Shown piece by piece: positions 4,449 to 64,000 of a DNA stretch of 64,000 nucleotides (positions within the stretch are counted from its first letter, which is position 1; each line of letters starts with the position of its first letter). Position numbers and translations under genes: made by a program. Origin of the DNA: Macrostomum lignano (taxonomy: Eukaryota). The stretch spans positions 1 through 64,000 of the forward strand of contig NIVC01000847.1 in assembly GCA_002269645.1 (NCBI GenBank), read 5' to 3'. The notes under the pieces are model-generated. The model was not told the DNA's origin. It saw nothing but the letters and a program-made list of their open reading frames with translations, and did not search any database.

Positions 4449-5205
4449 AAAATATCAGTTTTCCTTTTCTGGGATGCTGTTTTGAGCTTTAGTCACTGGG
4501 CATTTACGGGAAGTAGTGCAGGCGGGCGACTATAATACGCATGTACATTTTGAAAAAAATGTAGACCTTCAATGCATATGTAGCTCATATTTGTTTAAAT
4601 TCAAGACCAGTTTTGAAGTGCATATATGTCCTTATACTACTATAAGTGGAATTTATGGCCTAACATTAGGTTTTCTCCTACTGTACGTTTTATGCTTTCA
4701 CATCTGCGAAAGTAATGCAACCTGATGCGTGATTCATGAACTCCCGATCTCGCGAATATTCATTACATTTATTAAATGCACGAGAGTATGCATGTTATTT
4801 CCGCGCATTCAGAATTCTGAAGCTGAATTGAAGAAGCTGGCCATGGTACATTGCATGTATATTGATTATTAAAGTCCCTATGGCCAACACTGTTGCATGT
4901 GCAGTGTACGAATGCTATACGTATAAACAAATACAGTACTATACTGCTCTGGATGCTTTCTCAAAGTTTAAAAACTGCTTACACAAATCAATTAGACATA
5001 TATACAAACGTGCATCGATGCACATGCAACTTGTCTAAAAGACATACATGTATCAATATTAAAATGTATCTACATGTATATACAATACATGTAAGGCACA
5101 GTATGATATGTACATCGTGTAGAGATGTTATAATTTTAGTGTACCCTTAGGCACAATACAACAATATATATTATATTGCATATACTTTTGGTGAACCCAT
5201 ATTTC

Positions 5206-7190
5206 TGATGAGGACGCACTTTTTCCCAAATCCCGCGCTAGCACATGGGCTCTAAACTTACTTGCCTACTAACAGTGGGCAATGGGCATTTTTATCCTTT
5301 TTCTGCGAATTTTCATAGAAACTATACTAGATATAATGTCTGGTCATACTAGTAGTCATAATAACATAGGCGCAGCTTTTTGGGTCATAAATCATCGCTT
5401 TCAAAGTTGGTCTGACAGCCACCTGCGCCTCACTCAGTGTTGAAGCGGGCGCCAGATGGTCTGAGAGGATGCGGGCGGTAGCTTTTTTCTCATTATCTTG
5501 ACAGGCCATCAAGATTTACGAGGTCAGAGCCTATTGTTCGTGTTCACTCAAGCGTGTGACAGCTTTGACAGCTATGCGTTTTACCCCTAAAAGTACCTTG
5601 GGATTAGCGATTAGCGATTTCTCTTCATTATCTTCACTTTCTATTTAATAAGAGCTTTCTAATGTATATTTTTTCATTAATTTCTGTCAATCCTACGCGA
5701 AAAGTCATAAATCATTTTGTTGCGATTTTGAGTGATTTATGGCCGCACCTGTCATCTTTTTACGACCCTGTGGGAACTGATAGGATCTCTCGGTCACGTG
5801 ATTCTGGGTAGCAACAAGCTTAGCCAATCAGAAAATTCGGCGCTCATTTTAACAAAACGGCTCAGCCAATCAGAATCGACGTGTTCCATTATAACAAACT
5901 GCGGTCCAGTTGGCGGCTATTTAAACCGGAGTTTTTGGCCCGCTCGGACTCAACTTTGGCTCGGGCCCAGCGCGCAACTTCTGGTTCCCAGAGCACGACC
6001 GTCGTTTCTTGATCCCCGGATTGCGACTTCCCCCATCATCATCAAGGACGAGTCCCCCGGTCGACAGCAGCGAACATCAAGTTAAGAGCATCACCTGCTA
6101 GCTAACAGCGAAGAGTGTGACAGCATCATCCGAGTCTACAGCTGCAGAGCATCGAGCCGATTCGGTCACTGTGGATTACCTGGTCTCCGGCTGTTGAGTT
6201 TCTGATTGGTTGGGTGAGAGGCTACCTAGACTTGCTTGATTGGGTGATCCCTTATCTGTCCCCTGTTGCAGTAGCTGAATTAGGCGCACACTTTTGCTCA
6301 TTTTGTTCAGTAGTGCTGTTGCTGAGGCAGGAATCATTCAATAATACTGCTAGTAGTCTAAGACTCCAATTCAATCCGAGGTGTGAAGTGAACTAAGGAG
6401 AAGGTTAAATCTAACAGTTATTTTTGTCGGTTTTATTTCTTTGTTCGCCGATGGCTCAGATGAGTAGCTAGCTAGTAGGCGCCGGTCACAGTGGACCAAT
6501 GGCAAGGCAGTTCTCAGTCGACCAATCTATCAAATCAGTGAGCAAAACTGCCAGAAGTGCAGGATCGGCGCCAGAGATGTACTTTGTGCACTCTAGGGTA
6601 GCCAAGCGGCTCGGGTAAATGAATCATGCGGTCTCTGAAGTTCGAGTCAGTCTATCATCAGCGCTATGAGAGGCTAGTTGGCGCGTTGAAGGCCAAAAGT
6701 ACATATCTTCGTATTTAGCAATGTAATAGTACATGTAGCTACCCCATAGACTCGCCACCGCAAGAATCCCCTGCACAAGTCCCCTCTGTACCTGCATGGC
6801 CAACGCGATCTAGTCCCAGCAGTGTCCCTTAACATCGGCTATGACTTCGAGATTGACAGCAAAAAGACACTAGTTGGCAGGTAAGTGCAAAGCCCCTTCT
6901 AGTCGGAAGCCCGATTTCGAGAGTCCCGGTGTGGTGAGCCAGGGCGTACGGGCTGGTGGCAGCAAGTTAGTTGATCTGCGGATTAGCTAATTTCTACTTT
7001 CAAAATTCTCCCTGCTCGTCTCTCGCTGTCCCTCTCTTAGCTATAGGACCTAGACTGCTCGCCACACGATCAAGCTACCATGGGGCTGACCATCTGACAG
7101 GAGTGGGGGGCCAGGTCTCTAATTGATTTATTTCTGAGCCTGAGGCCCGAAGGCTTCCCTAACAAGGAGTCCGAAGGTCGAAACCCATCA
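5206..7190 (+). repeat. 5' LTR (1985 bp)
   Basis: Near-identical to 16149-18133; by eye four 1-nt indels and one substitution. Confidence 0.96.
5824..5925 (+). promoter_or_regulatory. Candidate LTR Pol II promoter: two AGCCAATCAG boxes (CCAAT at 5824 and 5866) and TATTTAAA (5918-5925)
   Basis: Motif sequence and spacing typical of LTR U3 promoters; duplicated in the 3' LTR. Confidence 0.55.
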
Positions 7191-7192
7191 AA

Positions 7193-7210
7193 TGGTGGCA
7201 GCGGTGGGAT
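7193..7210 (+). other. Primer binding site complementary to the tRNA-Leu 3' end
   Basis: TGGTGGCAGCGGTGGGAT, 2 nt after the LTR; reverse complement ATCCCACCGCTGCCACCA is the metazoan tRNA-Leu(AAG/TAG)-type 3' end with CCA. Confidence 0.9.
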
Positions 7211-9715
7211 ATGGTAAACACTAGCCGGTAGGAAGTGGTAAAGTGCTCACCGGTAGTGATGGCTGGTAAATGGCAAATTGTGACAGAATAATAAAATCGA
7301 GTTGCGCCGTTTAGATTTCAAAATTGGGAATTTAGGTTTCTTATTAGATTACTGTAAGTAGTCAGCTGCGATAGCTTTTCAAGTCTGAATTATGAGAGTC
7401 CAAAAATGCACAAAAAATTTATGCTACTGGAACCAAAAAAATTACTAGTATGAATTGCTTATCATTAAATGCATGCCTATTCAAAAAATCAACCAAAAAA
7501 AATTATAAAAATTCAAAAAGCCAGAGCATATAAAAAAAATCAACCCCGCACAGACAACTCTCTCAGCTTGATCAGTTATCTAGGCTCTCTGCTTAGTTCC
7601 CCAGTTTTGATTTCAGCCAGCTAATTATGCGGAAAATAGAGACTTAGGATAGTTCTTGTACTTTTGCTAAACAGAAAAGTTTCGAACTGATCACTCGAAA
7701 TTAAGCTATTAATTTTTGTCGTGTAGACAAGAGGCCATTATCCGAATGATGATGCTTCCTCGGCCAAAACGTTCATTATAGAATGCTGACAGCGCTCGTA
7801 GTTTTTGTCTTGTTTGCAAAATTTAGAATCAGGCAGCTTTTTGGATGTGCGAAGCCTTGGTTTCATACGCAGGGCCTCACGGGTTTTGGGTTCAAAGGTT
7901 ATACTCTGGAGCAGATTAGTACGGGACAGTCGGATTAGCGTACTGTGTGATTATAGTATCATTTCGATTTAAATCGGGGTGTTCTATCTGAGTGCTTCTC
8001 ACGAATTGTTGTCCGCTTTTCGGGCTTTGGTGGTATAAATCGCTTTAAGTGGCAACGGAGAGCTCAAATTCCCACTGCAATTCTCGGTATTCCGGCTAAC
8101 AATGGCAAGTGCTGTGCCGTTGGGCCTCTGGATGCGCTGGGTCAGACATCCATGTCCTGAAAAATATGTCTGGGGTTGATGGCTACCGGAACGCGAGAAC
8201 AGCCACGCTACTTTGGGTTTGGGTACAGAATTGTGAGGTCTGAAGTTACTTTAAGTTCGTACATTTACCATCTGCTTAGCCTAGGAGTCTGGGAAGTGTG
8301 TAGGTATTACTTTCAGTAGTACAGTTTGCCAGTGCACAAGTAAATTTCCTGGTTGCGGAATTTAGGGTTTGGAAGTTTGCTTTTGCCCTTTCGGTTCTTT
8401 CTTAGAATCGGAGGGGTATCTAATGTAAATACAGTAAGGAAAGCGGAGAGAATTACCCACACGGTGCCATGGTAGTATGTGCGAATTCCAGCTACCGCTC
8501 TGGTTAACGATTCTGCAGAGAGCAGAAAACGCCGTGGCTATTCATTTTTATGATAGCAAGAGGAGGGGAGCGCAGCTTTGTCTGGACAGACTCTACGACT
8601 CAAGACACAGATGTCTTCTGTGGTTCGCCGCTATAAAAATACCCGACCCGATAACGTAGGGTCATAATATTTGACAAACTTTCCTGCTGCCCGTAGCTTT
8701 TTCTATGATCAAAATTCTTAGGGACCGTGCCATAAGGTTTTGTTGCGGAGTGAACACTACACTACGGACCTGCTTAACTCCTTGTGTATTATCTGTCTGT
8801 TCGCGAGTATCGTTTATTAGGTGTAATCCGCCCTCACCGGTCAATGCTGACGAAAGCTACACAGAGGGGCCACTGGGCGCGCTGGGTCAGACGTCCAAGT
8901 TCCGCTAAAAGATCAGCCTTGATGGGGATTGTGAATCTGTCTAGCCGTAGCAGCACCCGGACGGTTTCCTAGTGGCGATACCACGCAGGAGAGCTCTGAT
9001 ACACATGAGGTGCCCACATATTGGCGCCTGCAATTTAGACTAATGAGAGCTGATGAGACCCTCCATGATTTACTAGCCCATCAAAATTATTCGGAAGCAA
9101 AAAGAGCCGCTCAGAGAGAAAGAGAGACTGAGACTGTAGTAGCCTGCGGAAAGCTGTGGCCTTAGCCCAGTTGAGAACCAGTGAGTTTAAAAGCAGCGAT
9201 TCGAGAAAATCCGAGATCGGATTCAAGGCAGAGACAGAAGGATTTTAGGTGTGAAAAATTTGAGTCAAGTGTGACTGCGGTGTGAGTGGAATAAGTGAAG
9301 TTTCCGCTTCGTTGGTTTTTGCGTATTTTTTCATTTTTGTGCTGTGTTTGCGATCATTATCGCAAGCCCCGCGCTCGTATTGTACGCTTTTTGTATATAG
9401 ATCGCGTATCTTTTGCTTATTTGCGTGTTTTATGCACTTTGCTTATTTTTGCTTGTAATTTATTGTTTTTGCTTTGAGCTCCCCAACTCGCGGCGCTCAA
9501 CCCCCCATTGCTTACTTGTGTCAAAACCCTACCCCAGTTAGGCTTTTTGCACAATCTCCCCCCCCTTCCCCCCATTCGATTCGATTCATTGCCATTGTCT
9601 TGCTTTGAAGCAGACACCCAATTTCGGCTAGTAGCCAATTGCATTCATTCTTTCCGCCCCGGTTCAGATTTTCATCCTTTAGTTCTGTCCCGGCAACTGG
9701 TGTTGTGCCCGAACT

Positions 9716-11074
9716 ATGGAAACATGTAATTCCAGTACCAGTAAGTCAGGAGGTAGAGGGAGAAGAGGTAGAGGGAATAGGAACGGATCAGCAGCCGCCG
9801 CCGCAGCCGCCTGCGATTTTTCGTCCCAGGGCTCAGGCTCCCCCGAGCGATCAGAGTGCGGATCATCACCGCAGAGAGCCCCACCTCAACCCCAAGCCGC
9901 CGACATGGCAGCCCAATTAGCGCAAGCCCTTGCAGCTATTGGATTGGGCAGAGAGACACAGAGTGTCAAGATTAGCGTTGAGAAATTCAACCCAGCAGAA
10001 TCCTGCTTCCCACAGTGGGTTGACAGAGTCAAATTCAAACTCAGATCTGAAGAGATTAGGGACAGAGAGCAGAAGAAGAGCACAGTAATCTCGCTCCTCC
10101 CCCCAGATCTGCAGAGTCTTGCTATTGCCCTCCATCCCGGCCTTGACTTCGAAGAATTCATAGAAAGGTTAGGTCGCCAGGTAGGAGAGGCCAGTTCAGA
10201 ATTAGCGAAGAGGAACAAAGTCCGGAATTTGAAACAGAAAGCAGGCCAGAATCACCACGCCTACTCGGCCATGGTGCGTAGTGTGATAGCTTCTGCTTAC
10301 CCCGACATGAGTCCTAGACAGTTAGAGTCGGAGGTGATCTTCGCCTACTTGGAAACGGCTGATATTGCCCCAGATGTGCGCAAGTCGCTGCTAGGGCAAC
10401 AGTTTCGCAGCATTGATGAAGTGCTGGCAGCTCAGCAGAATCTCCAAGAGGCAGATGAGATTTCCCGGCGCTTAGCGCGAGACCAGCCCAGATATGATCA
10501 GCGTAGGGACGAGAGAAACAGAGATCAAAATCGCCCCAGCGACAGAGAATATCAGCGCAGGTGGGTCCGCATGCTGGAGTCAGAGGAAGGAAGGGAAGTA
10601 GAAGAGGCATTGACAGATTTACAGCAGCGCCAAAACAGCCTTGATGAAACCGTCGGCAAGATTTACGGCGCTATGAGTCAGGTAGCGGAGAAGATCGATC
10701 GGGCCATGATAAGCCACTCAGATCATTGGGAGGGAGACCTCACAGTGGTAGAAGATACTGAGCGAGCTAGCCAACCGCCTGAGGGCAAGTCTCCGCCCCC
10801 CTCATCTCAAAATCTGTCAGAGAAGCCCGTGCTACAGAGGCAGAATGCGATTTATGGTGACCCGGCCAAGCAGATTGAAAAAACTGAGATTTACCGGCCC
10901 CCGCAGTTGCGCAACAGTGCACGCGCGCGCCCGCCTCCCTTGCGTGTTCCTACCCAGGGAGAGAGCAGAGTAGGAGAAGAGAGCTGGAGCCCCCCGCCAA
11001 CCCCGGCGCCTGGAACGCAGAGACAGCGGCCCTCTTTATATCTTCCGTCTGGGCCAGCCGGTTCGGAAAACTGA
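9716..11074 (+). CDS. gag: Gag-like protein, 452 aa, no CCHC zinc knuckle
   Basis: First long ORF after the PBS; strong Kozak ACTATGG; capsid-like segments KFNPAESCFPQWVDRV and LKQKAGQNHHAYSAMVRSVIASAYP; coiled-coil and proline-rich C-terminus. Confidence 0.8.
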   Translation: METCNSSTSKSGGRGRRGRGNRNGSAAAAAAACDFSSQGSGSPERSECGSSPQRAPPQPQAADMAAQLAQALAAIGLGRETQSVKISVEKFNPAESCFPQWVDRVKFKLRSEEIRDREQKKSTVISLLPPDLQSLAIALHPGLDFEEFIERLGRQVGEASSELAKRNKVRNLKQKAGQNHHAYSAMVRSVIASAYPDMSPRQLESEVIFAYLETADIAPDVRKSLLGQQFRSIDEVLAAQQNLQEADEISRRLARDQPRYDQRRDERNRDQNRPSDREYQRRWVRMLESEEGREVEEALTDLQQRQNSLDETVGKIYGAMSQVAEKIDRAMISHSDHWEGDLTVVEDTERASQPPEGKSPPPSSQNLSEKPVLQRQNAIYGDPAKQIEKTEIYRPPQLRNSARARPPPLRVPTQGESRVGEESWSPPPTPAPGTQRQRPSLYLPSGPAGSEN

Positions 11075-11126
11075 GAGTAGGGATGGGTGGCGCCCACACT
11101 CACCCCTCTTCTGTACTTTCAAGGGC
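11065..11126 (+). promoter_or_regulatory. Candidate -1 programmed ribosomal frameshift signal (gag to protease)
   Basis: G_GAA_AAC at 11065-11071 directly before the gag stop; 8-nt spacer; hairpin 11080-11105; protease frame is -1 and open from 10888. Confidence 0.6.
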
Positions 11127-11577
11127 AAATTTAGTAAACAGTGGCAAAAGGAAAATGAATCTTGTACCCGATTTCATTGTCCCTAGGAAGTCTGTATCAT
11201 TTAGAAGCTCTCGAGCTGATGTTTATGTAAAAGTTCAAGTAGAGAGATTGCCAGTCCGAATCTTAATCGATTCTGGGTCGGCAGTTTCCATCTTACCCTT
11301 CAAAGACTTTGTGGCGGCCACTAACGATGATATGGACAGGTTGGAGGCCCCTACAGTTTCTATCTATTCCTATAGCGGGCATAGACTGGAGATTGTGGGT
11401 CAATCTAAGCTGACAGTCATCTTAGGCAGTGAGACCATGCCTGTCATGTTCCTGATTGCCAGTGACCCCGGCACGAGGCCTCTGTTGGGCAACTCTTTCC
11501 TCGCAGCAGCACCTGCTGTGTTGGATTACCACACTAGAAATCTATTAGTATTGGGGCAAATGCTCCCATTTTGTTGA
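11083..11577 (+). CDS. Retropepsin-type aspartic protease; ORF stops immediately after the domain
   Basis: ILIDSGSAVSIL catalytic motif, flap-like SIYSYSGHRLEIVG, terminal PLLGNSFL motif. Confidence 0.88.
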   Translation: MGGAHTHPSSVLSRANLVNSGKRKMNLVPDFIVPRKSVSFRSSRADVYVKVQVERLPVRILIDSGSAVSILPFKDFVAATNDDMDRLEAPTVSIYSYSGHRLEIVGQSKLTVILGSETMPVMFLIASDPGTRPLLGNSFLAAAPAVLDYHTRNLLVLGQMLPFC

Positions 11578-11952
11578 CTTCCTGAAGAACTCTGAAGGTC
11601 GGGGGCCCGATTCGCTTTTCCCCTTGCTTATCCTCTGCTAGATCCGGTTTATTTCGTGAAAGTATTATGACAGGTTGGACGTATAGAGGAAATAGATGAA
11701 GCTCTTAGAACAATTGGAAGCTCTTAGAACAAATTATAAATGAAGCAGTTAACGCTGAAATGGTATATTTAAAATAGCTAATAGAATTAATGGTAGGAAC
11801 AGATACTATAGACTGGTGCAGCGTTTTATATAATTAAGAAAGGCATTAGGAAGTTATCTAAAAGCAATTAATACGATAATGATTTTATGGACAAATGAAA
11901 GGTGAAAGTGGTGTGGTAAAGGGCAGAAACCCTTAGGCACATGAATAGAGAA

Positions 11953-12549
11953 TTAGTTGGCACCGCTGAGCTGGGCGGCCGCCTGCATTAACAACTCGAC
12001 GGTGCGGTCGTGTTCAGGGCAGCCATGGTCAGAGGCCTGCAAGGCGCTAGCGTGTTGCTGCAGCCGCACCGAGAGGTCAGCTGTTGCGGGTGCCGCAGGT
12101 TGAGCACCGGAAGGCGCACCTGAGGGCTCCTCTTGAATGGAGTCCAAGGCGGAAATTGATGAGGCCTCCGGTGTGCTAGCACTGTAGTGTCCGATGGGGG
12201 TAGAGGTGCCCGCGGTAGTTGGGCGGGTGCCGCTGCTACTGGGCGTGCCCCGACCCCGACTGCGACCGCTGCTGCGACCTCCTCCACTCCGGGCGGGTCC
12301 AGCCACGCCGCGGTCAGCAAAGGTGGCCTCTATTAGAGGCGGAGCAGCAGTCCCGGCTCGGGGCCGGAGTGTCAGCTGGCCGTCTCCATGGGCTATCACC
12401 TCTGTTGGCAGGACTGAGAATGCGCCATGAATGAGCCTCTTGCCCAGGATAAGGCTCTGTTGTAGAATTAGCGCGCCCTCTGCGGGTGTGAGGTGGAAAG
12501 GTAGACGCAGGTTAGGGGTAGAGAGGGATTGAAGCTGCCAGGATTGGGA
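11953..12549 (-). CDS. Antisense open frame inside the LTR element (about 198 codons, no in-frame ATG; low-complexity with helical C-terminus)
   Basis: Stop-free from 12549 to the TAA at 11953-11955; GC-rich block between AT-rich spacers. Confidence 0.3.
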   Translation of the reverse strand, partial: SQSWQLQSLSTPNLRLPFHLTPAEGALILQQSLILGKRLIHGAFSVLPTEVIAHGDGQLTLRPRAGTAAPPLIEATFADRGVAGPARSGGGRSSGRSRGRGTPSSSGTRPTTAGTSTPIGHYSASTPEASSISALDSIQEEPSGAPSGAQPAAPATADLSVRLQQHASALQASDHGCPEHDRTVELLMQAAAQLSGAN

Positions 12550-13047
12550 TTAGCTTGAAATTCTGAATCGCTTTGAGTTCATAGTCCAATTAACATAACT
12601 TTGAGGAGCCAATTCTTCACTTGGGGAAATCCGCCGTAGCTATTTTTAGTCCCCCCAGCTAGTCTGCAGGGATCCCTCATCTCTTCCCTCCTCTGGTCCC
12701 CGCTCCCGTTCTCCTTCCCCCCCCCATGCACCCCATGCACATTTCGACCCCCATTGTAACCCTCGTTTTTTGTTCCTCTTGCAAAAAATTGACGGTCTGT
12801 TGAGCTCAAATGTTTTATTGGCCCTCATAATGAGTTTTTTCTACTATGCGCCCCAAATGATTTGTATCAATCTGAGGGTGACTCTGACGTGGAGTCGCCC
12901 CACCCTCTGTTTACTGTTATCTGATTTTTTCCGAATACAAAAAGGAAAACTTTGACTGTAATTCAATTTGACTTTCTGCGAGCTAAAAGCATTCTGCTAG
13001 CTGTGATCCTCTGTTTATAAGTGAGAGCTTTGTGCATCTGCGAAGAC

Positions 13048-14139
13048 ATGGAAGCCTTCTTGGTTAGCGCTATCAAAGAAGAAGTGCACTCACCGCTGTC
13101 GTCCGGCGCGACCAGTCCGCACAGCCGAGGCGGGCTGGGGAGCACGGGAGAGCGTCCGGCCATCCTGAGTGGTCTACGGCACCTGGAAGGCGAAGAGAGA
13201 CACGAACAGCTTGAGCAAAATGCGAAGGAGCGAGTGCTGGGACAGCTGGGCACCCGCCTTCATGGAGAGGGTCCCTTGCACTACACCCTGCTACCCGCTG
13301 CCCAGCAAGCTATCGATGAGAGACACTCCTTAAGAGCTGCCCACGCTCGAGCGGCAACATTGATGGGCACGGAGCTGGCCTACTCCTGGGCCGACGTCGA
13401 CAACAGCCTATGGCGCGTGATCATCGGCGAGGCCTACGACGCGCTGAGCCGACACTTCCGCGAGGTTGAAAGTGCGGGCCCATGGCCGACAGCGACGAGG
13501 TGGCCAAATCTAATCCAGCGGCTGGCCCCGCTACAGCTGAACAACCCGGGGCGGGCGGTCATGTACCTGGCCCAGCTGCTCGCCTTCCCCTATCCGGCGG
13601 CGGTCGATCGTGGCCTGACTCCGGCTGCAGCGGCGAACATCATCTCCATGTTGAGCCGGCACGAAGTCCATCTGACGGCTCTACAGATGGTCATGTACGC
13701 CCGACTAGTGCTAGGCTTACGCGGCGCCGATACTATCGTCTTCCATGATGGTCTGTTTGCGCTGGCTACCGACCTCACGCCAGCGCTGCTCATCTACGCG
13801 CCTCACCAAGCGGGCGAATGGGCCGCACAGCTGGCACTGCAAGACTGTCTGGACTCGACGGTGCTGATACTGGCAGTCGGCGAGGCCCCCGAGAACTGGG
13901 GCGGCCTGCCGCTCCTGCAGCCCTGCCCCCAGCGCCTGCGCGAGCGTCTGATTGTGGTCCCGGCTAACGAGCGGTTTTGGCTGCTTTCGCCCGAGCAGCT
14001 CGAGCGAAACCAGCTTTACAATGAGTTGGTGCGCGGGCCGGGTACCCCGTTTGAGGCTCGCTTACGACCTGCTCAACGACGTTTTCCACCGCGGCGAGGA
14101 CCCCCCGCGTTCGGTCCTCAAGAGGTCTGCTGCTCTTGA
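13048..14139 (+). CDS. Extra ORF of the LTR element, 363 aa, unknown family
   Basis: Intact GC-rich ORF; GACATGG Kozak context; non-repetitive globular-looking sequence; no RT, integrase, signal peptide or TM segment recognised. Confidence 0.75.
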   Translation: MEAFLVSAIKEEVHSPLSSGATSPHSRGGLGSTGERPAILSGLRHLEGEERHEQLEQNAKERVLGQLGTRLHGEGPLHYTLLPAAQQAIDERHSLRAAHARAATLMGTELAYSWADVDNSLWRVIIGEAYDALSRHFREVESAGPWPTATRWPNLIQRLAPLQLNNPGRAVMYLAQLLAFPYPAAVDRGLTPAAAANIISMLSRHEVHLTALQMVMYARLVLGLRGADTIVFHDGLFALATDLTPALLIYAPHQAGEWAAQLALQDCLDSTVLILAVGEAPENWGGLPLLQPCPQRLRERLIVVPANERFWLLSPEQLERNQLYNELVRGPGTPFEARLRPAQRRFPPRRGPPAFGPQEVCCS

Positions 14140-16133
14140 AGCCGCCCAGAAGATTTGGGAGTTGAGCCTGGCGGTGAGGCATCAGCGAAGCCAGAATGCC
14201 AACCAAGAGTGAGAAGACCAAGGGAGGGACTGATGTAAACAATCTTTTAATTAGGGAAAATATTTTACGTAATCTTTCGATTAAGTCGTTCGGCTCAAGT
14301 GATTAGTTAACGAATAGTACCTATATTTACATGTTCAACTTTTAACCAAGTTATTGTCATGCCGGAGCAAATTTCGAACCCCCTATTTTTCTTTTTTTGT
14401 GCTGCTATGCCCCTTGTAAATATATCCCCTTATTGCGTGAACTATTGCTTGCTCATACTGTCTTTTGCACCCCCCGATTCCCCTGTAAATACCCCCCGGT
14501 GCTTTGAGAATGCGTTTTTTATATTTATACTCAATGTTGTGCCACTATTTATCTCCGCGTATTTCTCTCTCTGTTGTGTCATTGCTTATTTTGTCTTGCC
14601 TAATTTCTTCTTTGCTCATTTTTTTGCGTAAAAGGTTCATCAAATGGTGGCGGAAACAATATGTTGTGTGCGTGAATGTGACTGCTTGCTTATTGTGCTT
14701 AATTTGTCGTGAGTGCTTTTGAAATTAAATGTGAAATTGAACCTTGGTTTGAGTTAAGTTTGAAACTGAAATTTAGGACTTCTCGTGTTACTAAACTCAC
14801 TGAGCCAAGGCGAAGAAAGAGATCAACGATGAGCGAATTAGGTCATTAATATAGAAGAATACTAGGCATAATTAAACTAATAAAAGTCTTAAATAAGGTA
14901 CGAATGGTCCACCTGAATTAATACGAATTGCTAAACCAAATTAGGAGTGATAAATTTAAGCTGAATTTCGCGGCCGTGCGATACTACTGATATGTAGTAA
15001 TACTGAGTGTAAAACAAAATAGGATTGTGTGAATTAAATTTGAAAGTGAATGCCATTGAAGCGGAGTCTTGAAGACAAAAATCTTTGAAAGAACTTTTAA
15101 AATTTAACACTAGTGCTCAAAATTATTCTGCCTCTTATCTGAAACTCTATTAATAATACATCTTAAAGTACCTATCTGCACAGCACTGAATGGGCAAGTG
15201 AGTAGGAGGGAGTGTACCCTGAAGGCTGCTGAGACTGTGGGATGGGTCTGGGATTATCCGATTGAGTAACGTGTACAGTAGAGAATCACAGAGCTGAGAT
15301 GAGACTTACCAGTTGAAGATCGGAGGTCTGCAGTGGCTGGCCTGGCTTGGTGCAAAATCAGCAAAGGTGGTGGTGGCGAAGCGCTGGCTGGCAAATCGGA
15401 GGCTGACGCAGGATTTGAAGATGAAAATCATAATTTGTGGATGACCTGAGTGGTCAGTCGCTTTTATCTCCCTGCGAACTCGAGGTGGTTGAGATCATTC
15501 TCCCCCAGCAGCGTCTCAGCCAGTCAGCAAGGATGACTCGAGGGTCCCTTAATCCTCTGAGGGTCGCCATTCGTCGGCTGCCGCCAGATGAGCACGGCAA
15601 CCCCAGGCACGTGGACTCCACAGGCGGGAGGGGAGAATGTGCAACGCATTTCCCAAGCTCCTCGCCCATCCTGGCTCGGGTCGGCCGCGCGGCGAAGGAA
15701 ATAAGCCATCAAGAGGCTTAACAGGTAGAATCGAGACTGACTCGAACGCGAACAATGAAGCTTAGTCTCATCGAACATGCGCTGTTTATTCCATTTCGCA
15801 CATTTTGAATTTTGTCTTCTCGCGTGGCAATAATTTATCTGTCTATTATCCCCTTACGTGTATCTCGCACTTGATACTGTATTTGCAATGCAATATTTAG
15901 TTGAAGCACCTTTCTCTTGATCCCTTTCTTTCTTCAAATCCTTCCCTTTCCCCAATTTCTTTCTCTTTTGGGATTTCCATTCTTGGGATGCGTATTAGTC
16001 TAATATTTTTAGTACCTATTTGTGAGTAACTATTTTTATTTTTACTACTCTTTTCGATGCGCTAGCTGCGATTTTGTACAAAACTGCGCTCATTTTTCTT
16101 CTTTGTTTTTGAGTTAATCTGCGATCAACTCAC

Positions 16134-16144
16134 AAATAGGGGGG
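16134..16144 (+). other. Polypurine tract
   Basis: AAATAGGGGGG ending 4 nt before the 3' LTR. Confidence 0.75.
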
Positions 16145-16148
16145 CATA

Positions 16149-18133
16149 TGATGAGGACGCACTTTTTCCCAAATCCCGCGCTAGCACATGGGCTCTAAAC
16201 TTACTTGCCTACTAACAGTGGGCAATGGGCATTTTTATCCTTTTTCTGCGAATTTTCATAGAAACTATACTAGATATAATGTCTGGTCATACTAGTAGTC
16301 ATAATAACATAGGCGCAGCTTTTTGGGTCATAAATCATCGCTTTCAAAGTTGGTCTGACAGCCACCTGCGCCTCACTCAGTGTTGAAGCGGGCGCCAGAT
16401 GGTCTGAGAGGATGCGGGCGTAGCTTTTTTCTCATTATCTTGACAGGCCATCAAGATTTACGAGGTCAGAGCCTATTGTTCGGTTCACTCAAGCGTGTGA
16501 CAGCTTTGACAGCTATGCGTTTTACCCCTAAAAGTACCTTGGGATTAGCGATTAGCGATTTCTCTTCATTATCTTCACTTTCTATTTAATAAGAGCTTTC
16601 TAATGTATATTTTTTCATTAATTTCTGTCAATCCTACGCGAAAAGTCATAAATCATTTTGTTGCGATTTTGAGTGATTTATGGCCGCACCTGTCATCTTT
16701 TTACGACCCTGTGGGAACTGATAGGATCTCTCGGTCACGTGATTCTGGGTAGCAACAAGCTTAGCCAATCAGAAAATTCGGCGCTCATTTTAACAAAACG
16801 GCTCAGCCAATCAGAATCGACGTGTTCCATTATAACAAACTGCGGTCCAGTTGGCGGCTATTTAAACCGGAGTTTTTGGCCCGCTCGGACTCAACTTTGG
16901 CTCGGGCCCAGCGCGCAACTTCTGGTTCCCAGAGCACGACCGTCGTTTCTTGATCCCCGGATTGCGACTTCCCCCATCATCATCAAGGACGAGTCCCCCG
17001 GTCGACAGCAGCGAACATCAAGTTAAGAGCATCACCTGCTAGCTAACAGCGAAGAGTGTGACAGCATCATTCCGAGTCTACAGCTGCAGAGCATCGAGCC
17101 GATTCGGTCACTGTGGATTACCTGGTCTCCGGCTGTTGAGTTTCTGATTGGTTGGGTGAGAGGCTACCTAGACTTGCTTGATTGGGTGATCCCTTATCTG
17201 TCCCCTGTTGCAGTAGCTGAATTAGGCGCACACTTTTGCTCATTTTGTTCAGTAGTGCTGTTGCTGAGGCAGGAATCATTCAATAATACTGCTAGTAGTC
17301 TAAGACTCCAATTCAATCCGAGGTGTGAAGTGAACTAAGGAGAAGGTTAAATCTAACAGTTATTTTTGTCGGTTTTATTTCTTTGTTCGCCGATGGCTCA
17401 GATGAGTAGCTAGGCTAGTAGGCGCCGGTCACAGTGGACCAATGGCAAGGCAGTTCTCAGTCGACCAATCTATCAAATCAGTGAGCAAAACTGCCAGAAG
17501 TGCAGGATCGGCGCCAGAGATGTACTTTGTGCACTCTAGGGTAGCCAAGCGGCTCGGGTAAATGAATCATGCGGTCTCTGAAGTTCGAGTCAGTCTATCA
17601 TCAGCGCTATGAGAGGCTAGTTGGCGCGTTGAAGGCCAAAAGTACATATCTTCGTATTTAGCAATGTAATAGTACAGGTAGCTACCCCATAGACTCGCCA
17701 CCGCAAGAATCCCCTGCACAAGTCCCCTCTGTACCTGCATGGCCAACGCGATCTAGTCCCAGCAGTGTCCCTTAACATCGGCTATGACTTCGAGATTGAC
17801 AGCAAAAAGACACTAGTTGGCAGGTAAGTGCAAAGCCCCTTCTAGTCGGAAGCCCGATTTCGAGAGTCCCGGTGTGGTGAGCCAGGGCGTACGGGCTGGT
17901 GGCAGCAAGTTAGTTGATCTGCGGATTAGCTAATTTCTACTTTCAAAATTCTCCCTGCTCGTCTCTCGCTGTCCCTCTCTTAGCTATAGGACCTAGACTG
18001 CTCGCCACACGATCAAGCTACCATGGGGCTGACCATCTGACAGGAGTGGGGGGCCAGGTCTCTAATTGATTTATTTCTGAGCCTGAGGCCCGAAGGCTTC
18101 CCTAACAAGGAGTCCGAAGGTCGAAACCCATCA
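16149..18133 (+). repeat. 3' LTR (1985 bp)
   Basis: Matches 5206-7190. Confidence 0.96.
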
Positions 18134-19590
18134 TTTCATTTAATAATATACCCTTCAGTGCATCCTTCAGTTAAAAATGTGATAATGACGAATCCTATAT
18201 AATTTACTACTGTTATACATGTGCATGTACATGTATTCCCGTGTGTACTTTAATTTTACTCATTCTAGTCTATGCACTTGTAATATATGGGTTTGTTATA
18301 GAGTACTAGAGTTTGCGCCTCTATTTTGTATTTGAGGTTTACAAGTTAAAAGAAAAATAATTAAAGTAAGGTATGGTGTGATTGATTTCTAAAAATTTTT
18401 TGTTTGGAGTGTTTTGAACGTTGAATCAGAAAAATATTAAAATTGATGCTGCAAAAATTGGTGCGTCTATTTAATTGCTAAAACAGTTGGATTAACTTTC
18501 TTATGCGATATGTTGAGCATTGAGTTCGAAATAATAGCTAGTCATCAGATATCATTTATTCGAAAATTAGAAGACTGCTTGAACATAAGTCGGCAATATC
18601 ACAATCCTCAAATTACAAAAATCCGATAAAAAATAATTAAATCATTTACAACAAAATGCGCGATATATTTACTTTAATCAATAAATTTGTCCATACTCAA
18701 GTAGTTTTTTGTTGATTTTGTTTTTTTTTTTCTAAACAGTAGAAAATTTATTAGATAGTAAAGAAAGAAAAGTCTCTAGTATCAATCATGGGCATTTTGA
18801 TTTCAGTATTCTGATTTGATTAATTCGTTTATTCAGATACTTCGTAATGTTCCCAGGCCAGCTAGGCCCACCCATGTGTCAGTCAGTAGTCTGTACGCAC
18901 TATTAAAACACAACTATGCCTTTTTGCATTTATAGAATCTTTAGAATTGTATAAAATATCGAGACTATAAGAGAAATTTATTAAAATTAATTTTATGACT
19001 GAATAGAATATAGTGTACACTGCAGTAAATTATCGTCTATTTATGGTTTCGAACCTATAATCTTACATACAGATTCTTTCATAATAATATACTGATATAC
19101 TTAACATATGTTAGATTATATAGCCAACAACAGCAATAAATAAAGCCTGTGTATTAACCAAATGTGAAGAAAACATGAGAAGATCTTATTCATTCAAATA
19201 TTTTTATTTTTTAGCATAATTTTTTGTAGTTTAAATTGAAAAAATACTCCGCCTCTTAATTTCATTACTTTGCCAATGAAGAAATATCAACTAGAAGTTA
19301 TTAAATTTGCACTCAAATAGATTGATAAGTTATTGCCCTAGTGTAATACAGATAATAATAAATTACCAACTAAAACATCCTTTTCAGCCAAAAGCCTTAA
19401 TGATATGCGAAAACATACAATGCACTATGCACTATATTACTTTCATTGTAAAATATAAAATTTCTTTTTTTGAGATGGAATCATTATCAACTATTAGAAC
19501 AACTATTAACACCAAATTCTATTTTTTTATAATTTTTTTTAGTTATAAAAGATCAGTGTCCTATGTTTCGAAAATTCTCTTCATGCCGAA

Positions 19591-22500
19591 ATGCCCTCAA
19601 CAATAGAAGAGAAGTCGGAGCGGTCAACCACACTGGCACCGGCAGCCTCTGCGATCAGAGCCGAGGTGAACTCTCCGAGGAGGGAGGAGTTGGAAAGGAA
19701 ACTTGTTGGCGTCAGGCAGTGTGAGCTCAGGGGAACTCGTGGAAACTCAAGTGTAATACTTCAGATGGGGCCAAGATGGGATTGATGGATGGGGTTGCGA
19801 CAGGATGATGGGACTGTGAGATCAGGATGATGGGACTGTGAGATCAGGATGATGGGACTGTGAGATCAGGATGATGGGACTGTGAGATCAGGATGATGGG
19901 ACTGTGAGATCAGGATGATGGGACTGTGAGATCAGGATGATGGGACTGTGAGATCAGGATGATGGGACTGTGAGATCAGGATGATATGACTGTGAGATCA
20001 GGATGATATGACTGTGAGATCAGGATGATGGGATTGTGAGATCAGGATGATGGGACTGTGAGATCAGGATGATGGGATTGTGAGATCAGGATGATGGGAC
20101 CGTGAGATCAGGATGATATGACTGTGAGATCAGGATGATGGGATTGTGAGATCAGGATGATGGGATTGTGAGATCAGGATGATGGGATTGTGAGATCAGG
20201 ATGATGGGATTGTGAGATCAGGATGATGGGATTGTGAGATCAGGACGATGGGACTGTGAGATCAGGATGATGGGACTGTGAGATCAGGATGATGGGATTG
20301 TGAGATCAGGATGATGGGATTGTGAGATCAGGATGATATGACTGTGAGATCAGGATGATGGGATTGTGAGATCAGGATGATGGGACTGTGAGATCAGGAT
20401 GATGGGATTGTGAGATCAGGATGATGGGACCGTGAGATCAGGATGATATGACTGTGAGATCAGGATGATGGGATTGTGAGATCAGGATGATGGGATTGTG
20501 AGATCACGATGATGGGATTGGGAGAGCATACCAAACTGACTTACACCAAAAAAACCACCCAGACACGCCAAACACGGAGCTCAGCACGCCCAGGTGGAAC
20601 CCGGACATCAGCATCTACTGCCACGCTTGCAGAGAGCTGGTCAGCGTCAGGGAGATTGTGCAGCACAAGCGCTACCATAGGGAGATGCGGCACTTTGGCT
20701 TGGCTAGTGAGCTGCATTGCTAACTACTTTTATCAGTAGCAGACTGGGGACATGTGTCAATCAGATACGTAAACTCAACGGTTGCGTAACAATTGAGGTA
20801 TAAACTCCACAATCCAAAGTCAAGTCTAGAAACCTTAACTACACAAAAATTCACAACCCACAGTACAGCTTCACTCCATAAACCACACAAACCACACAAA
20901 CCTCACAAACCTCAACAAACCCCACAAGCCTCACAAACCTCACAAACCACACAAGCCTCATAAACCTCAGGAAGCCCCACAAATCCCACAAACCACACAA
21001 GCCTCACAAACCTCACAAGCCTCACAAACCACACAAACCACACAAACCACACAAACCACACAAACCCCACAAACCTCACAAACCTCACAAACCTCACAAA
21101 CCACACAAACCTCACAAACCACAAACCTCACAAACCTCACAAACCACAAACCTCACAAACCACAAACCTCATAAACCCACAAACCTCACAAACCACACAA
21201 ACTATACAAACCTCACAAACCACAAACCACACAAACCCCACAAACCTCACAAACCTCACAAACCTCACAAACCTCACAAACCACACAAACCCACAAACCC
21301 ACAAACCTCACAAACCTCACAAACCTCACAAACCACACAAACCTCACAAACCACAAACCTCACAAACCACAAACCACACAAACCTCACAAACCACAAACC
21401 TCACAAACCACACAAACCCCACAAACCTCACAAACCTCACAAACCACAAACCTCACAAACCACAAACCACACAAACCTCACAAACCACAAACCTCACAAA
21501 CCTCACAAACCATACAAACCAAACCCCCACCAACTCTGCAGACGTCGCCAACCTGACTCTGGAGCAGCTGACCGCAGCCAGACGTCGCAAAGTGCAGCAG
21601 CTGGAGGAGCGGCTGGGCGGCTGCTCGGCAGTCCGCGCCACCGACCTTGAGCGGGTGAACCAGCGCTACGCCTTCCTGCGGGCCCACCTGTTCGAGGAGA
21701 ACCGAGGCCGCCTGGTGCTGGCCTCCCGGCCTGCCGAGCAGATCCCGGCCAATGATGTGGAAAGTAAGACTTTTTTCTATCAAACAAAACTATTTTTTCG
21801 ATACATATCGGCTGTTAAGACGTTAAAACTGGAGGCTCAAATCACGTTTCTCCGACTCTCAAATCCCAATTTTTCCTGACTCTCAATTTCAAATTTCCCC
21901 CGACTCATAAATCCCAATTTTCCCCGACTCTCAAATCCCAATTTTCCCCGACTGTCAAATCCCCAATTTTCCCCGACTGTCAATCCCCAATTTTCCCCGA
22001 CTGTCAATCCCCAATTTTCCCCGACTGTCAAATCCCCAATTTTCCCCGACTCTCAAATCCCAATTTTCCCCGACTGTCAATCCCCAATTTTCCCCGACTC
22101 TCAAATCCCAATTTTCCCCGACTCTCAAATCCCAATTTTCCCCGACTGTCAATCCCCAATTTTCCCCGACTGTCAAATCCCAATTTTCCCCGACTCTCAA
22201 ATCCCAATTTTCCCCGACTGTCAATCCCCAATTTTCCCCGACTCTCAAATCCCAATTTTCCCCGACTGTCAAATCCCAATTTTCCCCGACTCTCAAATCC
22301 CAATTTTCCCCGACTCTCAAATCCCAATTTTCCCCGACTGTCAAATCCCAATTTTCCCCGACTCTCAAATCCCAATTTTCCCCGACTGTCAAATCCCAAT
22401 TTTCCCCGACTGTCAAATCCCAATTTTCCCCGACTGTCAAATCCCAATTTTCCCCGACTCTCAAATCCCAATTTTCCCCGACTGTCAAATCCCAATTTTC

Positions 22501-25007: not shown

Positions 25008-26435
25008 CCGGCCGTGCAGTGGAATGGCATGGCAACAATTGAATCCAAACAGATTTTACTGACAGCTACGTGTAAGATGGTAATTGTACATGTGACTCGT
25101 TAAGTTAGCAGCTGTGATGTTTAACAGCTAGATAAAGAATTTTCTCACTTTATACACTTTAATGCAACTGTACATGCATGTAGATGCACATGAAATTGCG
25201 ACAATGAATCCTATATGAGTTCTGGGAGCCGTATGTAGCTGTATGTCTAAAAAATGGATGAATAAATTGCTACAGAAACTAAAATCTATACTTGTAATAG
25301 CAGCAGTTATGTCTTGTTTTTATAATTCTGCAACATTATGAAATGGATGAGTTTATTTCTAAATGAATACAGAATTCTCCATTTTTAATTTAACTGCGAA
25401 TCATTGATGATATATCAGTATCGAGGGAGGTGGCGGAAAATTGGGTGGCTCTGTGTTTTGGGCCGGGATCCCGGGATTGAAAAGGTTTCTATGATAATCT
25501 TTGTTGGTGCAATTTTGGTTTACTAAGCCATCTAACATGGTTTTAAAAGGGCTTTCAATGATAAAAGTGACAGTGAGAAACTGACAGTGATTGGAGTGTG
25601 ATGTATGAATTGGCTGGCGTAATCATAGATAGATGTTGTATTTGGATTTGGGCCTAATCCCGTGATTGTATTCCCTATAGCTTGGTCCCCCTTTGATTTT
25701 TTTCTGGTCTCGGCCTAAGGGGGTGGGGCGACCCCCCCCCCTGGTTGCGCCACTGGATACTATACTGATGATACATGATTACAAAATTCAGCTCGATGCC
25801 AATTAAATACATGGTAAAAGACAAGTGCAGATATGCATTACATGTACATGCTGGGTTGTACCCTCGTAACCATTACACCATTATTTATAGAGTATGTTGC
25901 ATACAACAAATTAACGTACGCAGCCCGCAAGCAGGTCACAGCTGAGTATGTCACAAGTTGTTTACATCTGCAAGCTTCGGCTTCTAAACTTATCAAAGTC
26001 ATCTCAGCTGCCTTTATTTTTATAAAATGGCTTATGTATCCTTCTATGCTACTGAACTGAAAGTAGAAAGCTGTTTTGTTAAGTATTCCTGAGAGTGAGT
26101 GGCCCATCTAGTTATTTTAGTATCTGTGTGAACCAGACCGACGCTCTATGCCATGTATGTTGCGTGATGTTTGGATGTTACATGCACGTATGTTGCATAC
26201 AAGTACATGTAAATGTTTTCAACTCTAAACTATAACTATCAAATTAATTAACAATGACCTGCTGTAAATGTTGTTTGTGTATAGCGAGTTCTTTTTTGTA
26301 CATCTAGTGGCCGCCTGCTGTAGTTGCTCTAGAATTTTATTTAGAAAATAATTCCTAATAAAAATCACAATTAGAGCTTAATTAAGTTTTATTGGTTTGA
26401 TTCCACTAAATCCTGCATTAGCTACATATGTATAC

Positions 26436-27132
26436 CAAGGACGACTTAAGTAGAAGGACGGGAAACCTCGTTTCTTAGAAAAGTTTTGAAGGCACTTTCT
26501 CCCGAAAAAATACACTACGGAGATAGGAAGTTTTCATTTTTTCAGCACAAAAATTGTTATTGCGTTTGATAGGAGGCAGATCCAGTGTTCATCTTTTGAT
26601 ATGTTGTGCCTTTTTTATTGCTCTATCGATATTTATAAAGCTTTTCGTTCAGAAAATTAGATTCTATGTTAATTTTTTATTCTACGTATATTTTCGCGTG
26701 TCTTGTGCTTGAAATACATTAGAATGCCACGGCTCGGCTCTTTAGCTTCATGAGTCTTTTTTATCATTCTTACCCGACTGTGTAGCAAATATTTGTAACA
26801 GAGATGATAAAATAGGTTCATAAAACCAAATATTGGAGCTGTGTCATGCATTTTTGTGATTTTTAGATCCAGGAAATATACGTAGAATAAAAAATTAACA
26901 TAGAATCCTAATTTTCTGAACGAAAAGCTTTATAAATACCGATAGAGCAATAAAAAAGGCACAACATATCAAAAGATGAACACTGGATCTGCCTCCTATC
27001 AAACGCAATAACAATTTTTGTGCTGAAAAAATGAAAACTTCCTATCTCCGTAGTGTATTTTTTCGGGAAAAAGTGCCTTCAAAACTTTTCTAAGAAACGA
27101 GGTTTCCCGTCCTTCTACTTAAGTCGTCCTTG
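26436..27132. mobile_element. hAT-type MITE, 697 bp, about 258-bp terminal inverted repeats
   Basis: Arms 26436-26693 and 26874-27132 are reverse complements starting CAAGGACGAC; 8-bp TSD ATGTATAC on both sides. Confidence 0.92.
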
Positions 27133-30100
27133 ATGTATACATGCATTCCTTTATTTTTAAATCTAACGGGGTAGATAACAAAACGTTATAAAATAAAGGT
27201 GTAATTCGACGTGACTAGGAAGCACGCATTGAGTAGTAGGATACAAAATGTATATTATCAAAGAATTATTTACTTCTGCGCACACACTGTCATTACTCAT
27301 AGCATGCGCACACTGATCACTATAAAACCACATTCGCTGCCCTCCCATCACAAGGCATCAAATCTACTGATGTACAGGGGCAAATGCTAAAAACCTAATG
27401 TACAGGTTGTATGGTAGAAAAAGACATTGCCCCAGAGGATGACGTTGTGAAAAATGAATGCCTTCAAGATTCTTGAAAGATGGACGATTATACAAATACA
27501 ATAATCTCGTAAAATAGTTCATCAATCAACAAGTATACGTTGTACTGATACATGTAGGGCACAAAATAATTTAATAATACAAAATATTCTAAATAGACAC
27601 ATTATCTGTTAATAAGGAGAGATCAATGAAAGACCTGCCAAAAGTATTTTTGCTTACTAAAAAAGTCGGCGATTTTTGTCGTTATTGTAGTCGTTATTAC
27701 TACTCTTTTTTAGTTTCTATGTGATTTTTTAGTTTATACATTAGAACTTTCCTAACCTTGAACCAAGTACGATAGCAAATGCTTCAATCATTTAGTAGAA
27801 AAAAAAGTTTTTAATAAAAGCATAAAGTTTTAAATTATTTTATTTCCTACTTTGTAAATCATTTTTCTGCTGTTCAAACCATTTTAAAAAAATTCTATTT
27901 TAACTGTGGCCCGTAAGCCGTATAGAAAAACTTTTCTAAGCATCGAGTCTTAACTCTCTTTCTAGCAGTCGAGAATTATCGTTCAAGTTAACCGATTGCA
28001 AAAATCACTGACTAAAAGCGTATCCAATTTTCGAATTTGTTCTTCACTTCATTCGTCAACAACTAAGGATTCTTAAGTAAGTAATATTATAAATCAATGT
28101 TTTCGTTCATTCAACAGCTAGTAATTGATCAAATTTTGAAGGCATAACTAGGCCTAGTTACTGCAAAGCAAAGCAATTATTTATTTGGCCGTAGGCTATT
28201 TCTATTGGATTCTATAGTTTTGTAAGTTGTATTCCTAATACCTAACGTGCAGGCTTATTCACTAGGGGCCTATTATTTATGAAAATGCATTTTTGCGTAG
28301 AACCCCATACTCTGTTGAGTCCATTAGCATGAGAATTCAGGAAGGTGGCAGTGTGCGCTGGAATAAACTTTTTATGGACAATTTGTGTGCTATCTGTGCA
28401 CTGTTTCTAAGCCCTAACTTATAAAGACTATGTAAACATTCATGCCAACTAGATGTTAATCTTTTGATATTTTGCTTTTTGTATAGCTCTATTGATATTC
28501 GTAAAGCTTTTAGGGCCTAATTTTATCTAAAAAAAATGGATAATAAAACTTTTTTTCTATAGTGGTATATTGGTTTTTTTCATTGGCACTAAGATGCAAA
28601 ATTGTATCCAAGATCTAAATTTAGGATATGACAAACATACAAACCTTAGAGATTTAGTATATTTAGATTTGGATCAGGATATTATATTATATCCTTATCT
28701 ATCTATGTCTTAAAAGTATAGATCTTGAATCTTAAAAATCTCAAAGTATGATATTGTCCAACCCTTATTTTTCATTGGCACTAGAATTCAAAATTACATC
28801 CAAGGTATAATTTGAGGATGCAATTTTAAAAGTTATGATGCATCTGTATTGCAGAAAAAATTAGAACTGTATATGCCATATGCCTAAAATCATTAAAACC
28901 CTTTTGTAACTAAAGTCTAAACTGCATTAGATGCCCCTTTTTTAATGCCCAATCATGCAATGTACCAGACCATGCTTGTATTACTAAAGGCCAATCTGTG
29001 CTAGATGCTATTTGCAAAAATGGCCATTGGCTATAATAAAGCAATAAAATTACATAGTTTAATGTACACTGTACTGGTTTTAAAGGTTTGTATTTATAAT
29101 TAATAATTAATTTTTTTTCAAATTAGATAAATGGCGCATGACCAAGACGGCCACATACCAAGACCGCCACAGCTCTTACTGACTATTGGAATTGAGGGGA
29201 AGTTACCAATCTTCTAGCATTGCTATTGGTTATGATGGGTTGTGGAGTTAGATGAGGAGGAAGTGTCCCAAGATTGGTCACTAATAAGATGAATAAGTAA
29301 CCCAAAATGATTTCAAGTCAACCAGGGCAATTTTAATAATTCAAATTAAATGAAAAAAACAAGGAACCTGGCTCACTCACCTACCTGGCCAGGCTGGCCT
29401 GCTCACCAGTTCCTCTCTCATGGCTTTGTCTTGCTGGCTCTCCCCATCTCACCCCTCATCAGCACCATCCAACAACATGGCAAGCCAAATTCCTCCCTCC
29501 TAGCTCTTCCAAGTGTGGCAGTCTTGATGTGTGGCTGTCTTGGTCCTACACTAGATAAATATATGCTTATATATTTGGCTTTATTATATAGCATACATAT
29601 GCAACCCCCCCCTGATTAACATTAGCTATATGACTTGCTTTTTGACCAAAAATGCAACTTATCTTTAAAAAACCTAAAGCAAAAATTAATTCAATTTTGG
29701 GTAAATGGCAGGAGTAACATTTTTTATTAGGGCTAAATGTCTTATTATATAATTAGAATAATACTACATCTGTATCTTTATGTTGGCATTTTTGTGACTT
29801 GCCTTGGCTAGGCCCCTTGCCAGCTAGCCACATAGGCCAGGTGTTGCATATATATGTTATATAGTATTTTAATTAACCTATTTAAATATAACTATTATAA
29901 CTGTTAAATACTAGAATACAAACCAAAATGCATTGTAATTGAATAATATTTTAGTTTTTATATTTCATTATATCGATATATATATATCAATAAATTTTGT
30001 ATAAACTCTATAAACTATAATTTTTGTTAAACCTTGGGTTAACTCAAGGTGTAAACTTGGGACATTTCCAATTGTTTATATAATGTCTAATTAGAAAAAA

Positions 30101-37633: not shown

Positions 37634-55014
<17,381 letters not shown>

Positions 55015-61403: not shown

Positions 61404-63032
<1,629 letters not shown>

Positions 63033-64000
63033 TAGGTTATGACCTAGTTTATATACTCAACAACATTTAAAAGTGCGCAGTAAATTCTAGGTCGGTATCG
63101 ACTTTGAGCATACATGCGCCACCCCACTGATCTACACTGGTCATGCGACTTATTTTTTTTACCAAAAATGTGACTTACCTGAAAAAGAAACGCAATTTTG
63201 GGTAAACGGCAGGAGTAACTATAAATGTCTTTATTAAGATAAATGCCTCGTCACCTAATTAGTACTATCCTATTCTTTCGGGTGGGCGTTTTTATGCGAC
63301 TTACCCCTGGTCCACCACAATTCACGGTGACCGGTTCGGCCAGGTCAGCTAGCAGTTGCGCATGTATGCTTTTAAGTGACGCAACTTTTGCCACACCTTT
63401 TGCCACGGGTGAGGAGAGATTGGGAAGAGCGGAGGGCAAAGATTGGATTAATTGAAGCTTTTTAAATATCAAAATGGTTGGCCAGGTGATAGACGCTAGT
63501 CGAAAGACACTGCTTACTGGGGCAAAGGATGGCGACTTTTCAATGTTGCTGAGTGTAAATATATTCAAGACAACCAGATTTTTCTAATCTCTATTATGAA
63601 GATTAGCTTCATATTCTCTGCTCGCTACTAAGTCAGTAAGCTATCTCTGTTATAATGCACTGTGCAACAAGTCTGTTGCAAAAGCTGAGGCATGGCCATG
63701 GGTGTTTGGCCAGACCGTGCGCTACTGTCTCTTGAGCTGCTCTCGGTCTTGGCTGGTCGCGTCTCGGTAAGCAATCAACTTTAATCATTTTACTTGCTTT
63801 GCTGCCTATTCGTGACTGAATCAGGATTTTCGAGCAATTTGAGACCAGATTTGATGAGGCAATTATTTATTTACAATTGCGCTTGCTCTGTCACCATCTC
63901 CTCGGTTCTATCAGCTTAAAATTTAAGTTTGATAGTTCTGTTAAGATTGCTGCATCATTGAATAGCCTGCTAAGGTTGCAGCAGCCTGCCACGCGGTTTC

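Follow-up and report, generated by a model that had tools for sequence, protein, structure and literature searches.

Within a 64,000-nucleotide stretch of the Macrostomum lignano genome (contig NIVC01000847.1, positions 1 to 64,000; hereafter the window), an ATG-to-stop open reading frame of 363 codons as assembled (13048-14139, forward strand) raises the question of what protein a retroelement carries in what a first-pass annotation called the env position, and of what kind of element carries it. The ORF, termed the cargo here, is a real, long-conserved accessory gene of a retroelement, and its product is a selected protein without a database relative. The surprise is the system around it, which is a probable two-part retrotransposon, present as two old families of which no complete member was detected.

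The ORF opens in the strong Kozak context that the first-pass annotation had described (purine at -3, G at +4). That annotation also took the frame to be intact, which does not hold for the copy in the window: it diverges near codon 330 from the frame common to the other copies, so that ~30 residues at the end of its 363-aa translation do not belong to the conserved C-terminus. The conserved part of the ORF covers approximately codons 1-330, and the conserved C-terminal part lies in the other frame at 14039-14212 (forward strand), where it matches the copy on contig C4636 at 96%. Mismatches are biased to third positions in all 150-base blocks of 13001-14050, and the bias switches frame past ~14050. 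The natural copies on C4636, C1545 and C2406 encode proteins of 388, 385 and 391 aa, respectively, and one further copy, likewise frame-shifted, encodes 372 aa. The frame change in the window copy may be an assembly error, since contigs built from short reads (runs X1 and X9) show gaps relative to the window in the 3′ stretch of the cargo.

The cargo is under strong purifying selection. Against the copy on C2406, dN/dS is 0.09 over 329 codons (p ~1e-44), and six pairwise comparisons of natural copies within this family (family A) give 0.09-0.19 at dS of 0.73-2.4, so that the neutral decay against which the first-pass annotation had suggested checking is not borne out. The ORF almost certainly encodes a real protein. 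That it is a captured host gene fragment in neutral decay is barely credible; several cargo copies are indeed broken or lost, but dN/dS of about 0.1 largely refutes this explanation, no host match was found in the genome or the databases, and the IAH1-like SGNH genes of the host are at loci separate from the cargo. Three runs taken as RNA gave low cover of the cargo with no splice joint into the ORF, and the depth of run X1 parallels that of a DNA-like run.

The observation that env hallmarks are lacking was upheld by a hydropathy and RX[KR]R scan of five cargo proteins. None of the five has a signal-like N-terminus (19-residue hydropathy of at most 0.49 in the first 25 windows, judged without a dedicated predictor) or a strong membrane segment (best 19-residue hydropathy 1.37-1.71, and 1.37 in the window copy), and the best-scoring segments fall at modelled strands or internal places. 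The furin site RX[KR]R is absent from all five, and the window protein has no N-glycosylation sequon. Env identity was rejected on the missing signal-like N-terminus, membrane anchor and furin site, and as judged from its sequence the protein is very probably not an env product.

The carrier of the cargo is a young Ty3/gypsy LTR element at 5206-18133, recognised by LTRs of the TG...CA type, a primer-binding site, a polypurine tract and a target-site duplication. The 5′ LTR (5206-7190, forward strand, as are all following features of the element unless stated) differs from the 3′ LTR (16149-18133) by one mismatch and four one-base gaps over 1983 aligned bases, and sequence comparison reveals a 4-base target-site duplication at 5202-5205 and 18134-18137. 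The primer-binding site (7193-7210) lies within a long leader that runs with the first gag codons over 7191-9753. Gag (9716-11074, 452 aa) has a capsid-like domain and a coiled region, a weak match to PNMA and a dN/dS of 0.17, and it resembles the gag of complete elements with E-values down to 1e-16. An aspartic protease is encoded in the -1 frame at 10888-11577, terminated by a stop codon (110 bits by profile, dN/dS 0.08), and a slippery-like heptamer at 11065-11071, in the overlap of the two genes, suggests that a -1 frameshift joins gag to protease. A 3′ region with the polypurine tract (14099-16148) precedes the 3′ LTR. No RT, RNase H or integrase is encoded in the window element, as judged by its ORFs and Pfam; Gag and protease are intact, which is the arrangement of the wheat element RLG_Sabrina_SA. 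The cargo does lie between protease and 3′ LTR, and to this extent the placement in the first-pass annotation stands, but “env position” is a loose term because the element has no pol for the cargo to follow.

Between protease and cargo is an antisense frame of 175 codons without ATG (11953-12480, reverse strand), which has third-position bias and is open in the window and in C2406. It stands behind a pyrimidine-rich, splice-acceptor-like AG and is likely to be a spliced exon. This frame was lost along with the cargo in the copies on C2246, C839 and C3728. As a separate observation, short-read depth over the LTR (5206-7190) is ~200 times the internal depth in run X9 and ~150 times in X1, whereas the leader is covered to the same depth as gag. 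Solo or related LTRs are likely to be numerous. A search with the LTR-end pattern gave just four exact matches, which do not account for the high LTR depth.

The cargo matches 13 contigs of the genome, and the match adjoins family-A element DNA in all 11 contigs examined of the 12 besides the window. This confinement to element DNA, together with the purifying selection, bears out the suggestion of a retroelement accessory protein. The proposed check for homologues in autonomous elements turned out otherwise, with a cargo profile finding none in 27 complete RT elements. The cargo is deleted from the copies on C2246, C839 and C3728. LTRs are 99.7-99.9% alike in cargo-less copies (those on C2246, C839 and C181), so the cargo is not needed in cis. 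The C4636 locus is a duplicate in the assembly, with the same element, flank and target duplication as the window, and since the assembly holds such duplicate loci, the copy ratios given below are rough.

A second family (family B) was reached via gag matches at ~40% identity. Its DNA is unrelated to that of family A; the primer-binding site is identical and the gag-protease layout is the same. In the cargo position is a 449-aa ORF homologous to the cargo (26% identity over 120 aa, E 5e-6; ~25% overall), whose N-terminal region, absent from family A, comprises the basic stretch RKRP and acidic sequence. The family-B cargo gives 81 matches, of which 15 are full-length near-identical copies, and the one comparison with a diverged copy gives a dN/dS of 0.10. 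By coordinates, a cargo match lies beside 24 of the 44 family-B gag copies that have a primer-site match, some of the others ending at contig edges. The family-B protease (on C650) has the active-site motif D-G-G, not D-S/T-G, and follows a GGGAAAC heptamer with a predicted hairpin. Family B also has an antisense frame at a place similar to that in family A.

Where, then, are the RT and integrase that such elements need? The family-A LTR end plus primer site has 19 exact matches in the genome, 14 of which lead into gag-protease (one across an 11-kb gap), three into truncated leaders and two, on C3095 and C1757, into a different interior with a capsid-like domain, a spacer, RT, RNase H and integrase in this order. 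This partner shares window positions 5206-9753 and 14099-17832 at 97.5-97.7%, with the leader at ~98% and the 3′ region at ~97-98%. In family B, assignment of the 54 matches by eye places 44 with gag-protease and eight with a partner of the same kind, two being left unassigned. The family-B partner is a single frame of 1553 codons on C936 and C1115, it has 4.8 kb and 3.05 kb in common with the family-B cargo element at 98.7-99.0%, and it has the same order of RT, RNase H and integrase, which the window element lacks. Four-base target duplications were found on both kinds of element, at 10 of 12 ends examined (one being the duplicate locus of the window).

Pfam detects no protease in either partner, and it does detect one in a complete control element. 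A local profile built from 110-residue natural protease stretches is positive in 27 of 27 other RT elements (27-127 bits), of which 17 are seeds or share the seed motif stretch and 10 are not seeds. In partner stretches from 11 of the 12 known partner loci, the same profile does not exceed 5.4 bits; one stretch is cut by the contig end, and none of the 10 informative stretches is positive. A fully autonomous partner such as that of Sabrina_SA was thus not found, the partners lacking protease. A gag-protease half and a protease-less RT-integrase partner with the same ends therefore likely need each other.

The partner RTs of the two families are 70% identical and form a clade with support of 100/100 in a tree of 37 rows. 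The next best RT is 51% identical, and none falls between 52% and 65%, among the best 141 of 4579 candidates scored. A midpoint-rooted capsid tree of 15 rows joins the two gags (support 85/79) and the two partner capsids (98/95), and unites all four with 100/100. Because RTs and both capsid types group by role and not by family, the split appears to predate the divergence of families A and B, with the cis sequences within each pair still matched. With sister RTs in the partners and no complete relative among the best 141 of the 4579 RT matches, the split looks old and obligate, and we consider obligate dependence likely. An alternative is that dependence is one-sided, both kinds of element being deletion derivatives of a missing complete helper, or the RT half borrowing the protease of any gypsy element. 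The assembly may lack a complete helper, and the partner, which keeps its capsid-like domain, might use the protease of another family; known gag-protease elements do have complete helpers, as far as the wheat reports describe them (PMC9744471, PMC11302176), the LTR depth far exceeds the internal depth, and the genome searches score top candidates only. Against this are the identical split in two families, the clustering by role, the gap in RT identity and the finding that no assignable element among the 73 LTR-plus-primer-site matches has both protease and RT. We regard one-sided dependence as unlikely.

The closest known systems, in the parts of the literature we draw on, are in wheat, where RLG_Sabrina_SA (Gag and protease) pairs with RLG_Wilma, and RLG_Quinta (Gag and an unknown domain) with RLG_Cereba (PMC9744471, PMC11302176). 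As here, these are gypsy elements that encode Gag without RT and integrase and have LTR and primer site in common with a co-evolving partner. In these descriptions, however, the wheat partner is autonomous, Cereba encoding a protease, whereas the partner described here lacks protease and no complete element was found; dependence here appears to be two-way, in an animal genome, and the split is in two old families. BARE-2 and the deletion forms of IAP are also non-autonomous LTR elements in which some of the coding capacity is retained. The same is true of the TR-GAG elements of plants (PMC4350172), but all of these are either short and gag-only or dependent on a complete element, with no reciprocal partner known. 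Searches of the full-text literature, judged mostly by title and start of abstract and in a corpus short of most subscription papers and repeat databases, turned up no account of an LTR element that is obligately in two parts.

The relatives of the cargo protein were sought by sequence and by structure. Word-indexed protein searches were blank with the ORF alone and with the alignment of both families, as was that with the N-terminal region of the partner; searches of the ESM Atlas gave no relatives, and Pfam has no family for the ORF at E-values up to 1 or 10. The sole HMMER match among 1.84 billion representatives, a repeat protein over 39 residues, was rejected as chance, and a PDB sequence match to one alpha/beta hydrolase (E 0.79) was not trusted. 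The SGNH family PF13472 matches three loci in the genome, all of them other than the cargo. A structural model from 11 natural rows (pLDDT 49, pTM 0.44) has a predicted helical N-terminal and alpha/beta C-terminal part, in keeping with the fold pattern proposed in the first-pass annotation; a single-sequence model (pLDDT 42) matched helices only and was set aside. Foldseek gave nothing at E 0.001 for the model among PDB and viral models. With a structural aligner against 48,161 chains, the top four matches of the C-domain are SGNH/GDSL esterases (Z 6.2-5.4), followed by a receiver domain (5.4), and against 1000 pre-selected chains the top 12 are SGNH/GDSL-type (best Z 6.9, rmsd 4.0, 142 of 178 residues aligned) with the next fold at 4.7, values under 8 being ones that, by the aligner’s own warning, may reflect a mere common alpha/beta arrangement. 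The family names of the top 12 are presumed from their titles. Two other origins were considered and found no significant support: a 14-column motif match to the TatD-like ORF of another element has a probability of 1.6%, and a TatD TIM-barrel is not among the leading fold matches of the model; short motifs hinting that the cargo is related to the helical third ORFs carried by complete elements are likewise not significant.

By eye, against the known SGNH patterns, strands and helices of the cargo line up with the SGNH blocks, with the Ser, Asn and His missing, and the motifs G-D-S, G-x-N-D and D-x-x-H are absent from the C-domain in both families. Compared as a profile with 64 SGNH sequences, the cargo reaches a probability of 1.4% and a score of 17.6, where the best of 40 column shuffles scores 17.3; this is not significant. 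The first-pass suggestion of an SGNH-like domain without its catalytic motifs is thus upheld as regards the best structural match and the absent motifs, while Z stays under 8 and the profile comparison gives no significance; on the model, an SGNH-like fold is moderately probable. We do not class the cargo as a hydrolase; the prediction is of a protein that resembles an esterase but is inactive. Motifs kept between families at 25% identity, which are D-G after the first strand, Y-x-P, G-D/E, R-N and H-R, would also suit an active enzyme, such as a lipase, deacylase or nuclease, that uses non-classical residues, and active GDSL third ORFs are described in rotifer LTR elements. But by eye there is no Ser in the first-strand motif, no Asn in the third and no D-x-x-H before the last helix, and the His of H-D-G is replaced by Asn in one selected copy, so that we consider enzymatic activity very doubtful.

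In bdelloid rotifers, active GDSL/SGNH third ORFs are described in Vesta and catalytically dead GDSL derivatives in the Penelope-like Athena-L (PMC5408684). As described there, Vesta resembles the present case: the third ORF of an invertebrate gypsy element is not an env, lacks membrane segments and has an SGNH-type fold, which for the cargo is predicted. In contrast, S, G, N and H are retained in the Vesta proteins, which were found by profile search, whereas the cargo has an extra helical N-domain and no profile match and sits on the pol-less half. The OSK domain is catalytically inactive and RNA-binding, and might exemplify how an SGNH fold can be put to non-catalytic use. It is the SGNH-like domain of Oskar (PMC7250577), a host germ-plasm protein, unlike the cargo, and no sequence link to the cargo was found.

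A mechanism can be proposed from general knowledge of Ty3/gypsy replication. The gag-protease half would make Gag, and Gag-protease through -1 frameshifting, and the particle would be built from both. Through its capsid-like domain, the partner's RT-RNase H-integrase polyprotein would enter this particle and there be cut in trans by the protease of the first half, and the shared leader could lead to packaging of both RNAs. The copy excess of Gag-protease over partner (14:2 and 44:8, ~6:1) might substitute for the usual Gag:Pol ratio. The cargo would be translated from its own message and would bind RNA or membrane without hydrolysis, acting in trans. A role as particle or RNP cofactor is the likeliest of those considered but tentative, its probability falling somewhat short of even. 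We lean slightly towards the wider picture of a segmented LTR retrotransposon, that is, an old animal gypsy lineage without a complete member, with segments matched by recombination, Gag:Pol set by copy number and a dead-esterase cargo that lets both RNAs travel together. Taken as a whole, the model of an accessory protein on the Gag-protease half, a complementing partner and a trans-acting non-catalytic SGNH-fold cofactor seems to us evenly poised between right and wrong.

Within the same two-part element, the cargo could instead be a nuclear anti-silencing factor or a transcriptional regulator of the LTR. The basic RKRP stretch and acidic region at the start of the family-B protein would fit such a role, third ORFs with chromo, DnaJ and TatD-like domains are found in other gypsy families here, and cargo-less copies are compatible with a trans-acting product. 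However, the family-A protein lacks the basic and acidic N-terminal region, and the conserved core is modelled as an alpha/beta domain with SGNH folds as best match. A nuclear factor is fairly unlikely by comparison with the cofactor.

LTR elements are usually sorted as autonomous or as parasites of autonomous ones. If the two-part reading is true, this lineage, with both halves incomplete, would correspond among retrotransposons to the multipartite viruses; its split would have been stable while Gag drifted to ~40% and the cargo to ~25% identity, and it would offer a natural system for studying how cooperation persists amid cargo-less cheaters. The cargo itself is a candidate case of a retroelement having taken up an SGNH fold devoid of catalysis. 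Annotation anchored on RT overlooks one half of such a system and labels the other defective. For one free-living flatworm, LTR elements have been surveyed by RT-based mining (PMC12801592); the main text of that survey does not contain “non-autonomous” or “ORF”, though its supplements may list partner families of this type.

Third ORFs differ among the complete gypsy families of this genome, which show DnaJ, DnaJ plus chromodomain, TatD-like (E 4e-5) and a shared helical domain without a family (loci L137:7111-8193, L135:6676-7455, L101:5594-6559, L103:5713-6597, L140:1167-2798 on the reverse strand and L128:8895-9998). On C1674 (L056-L057), a 709-aa ORF is inserted near a gypsy gag, and by eye it resembles a tyrosine recombinase. 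Elsewhere in the window are a DEAD-box helicase gene, recognised from motifs read directly in two ORFs at 61576-63035 (forward strand), a MITE-like inverted repeat at 26425-27143 with 236-base arms that are 97% complementary, and long tandem arrays at 46341-48270 and 19647-20670 with units of 11 and 22 bases.
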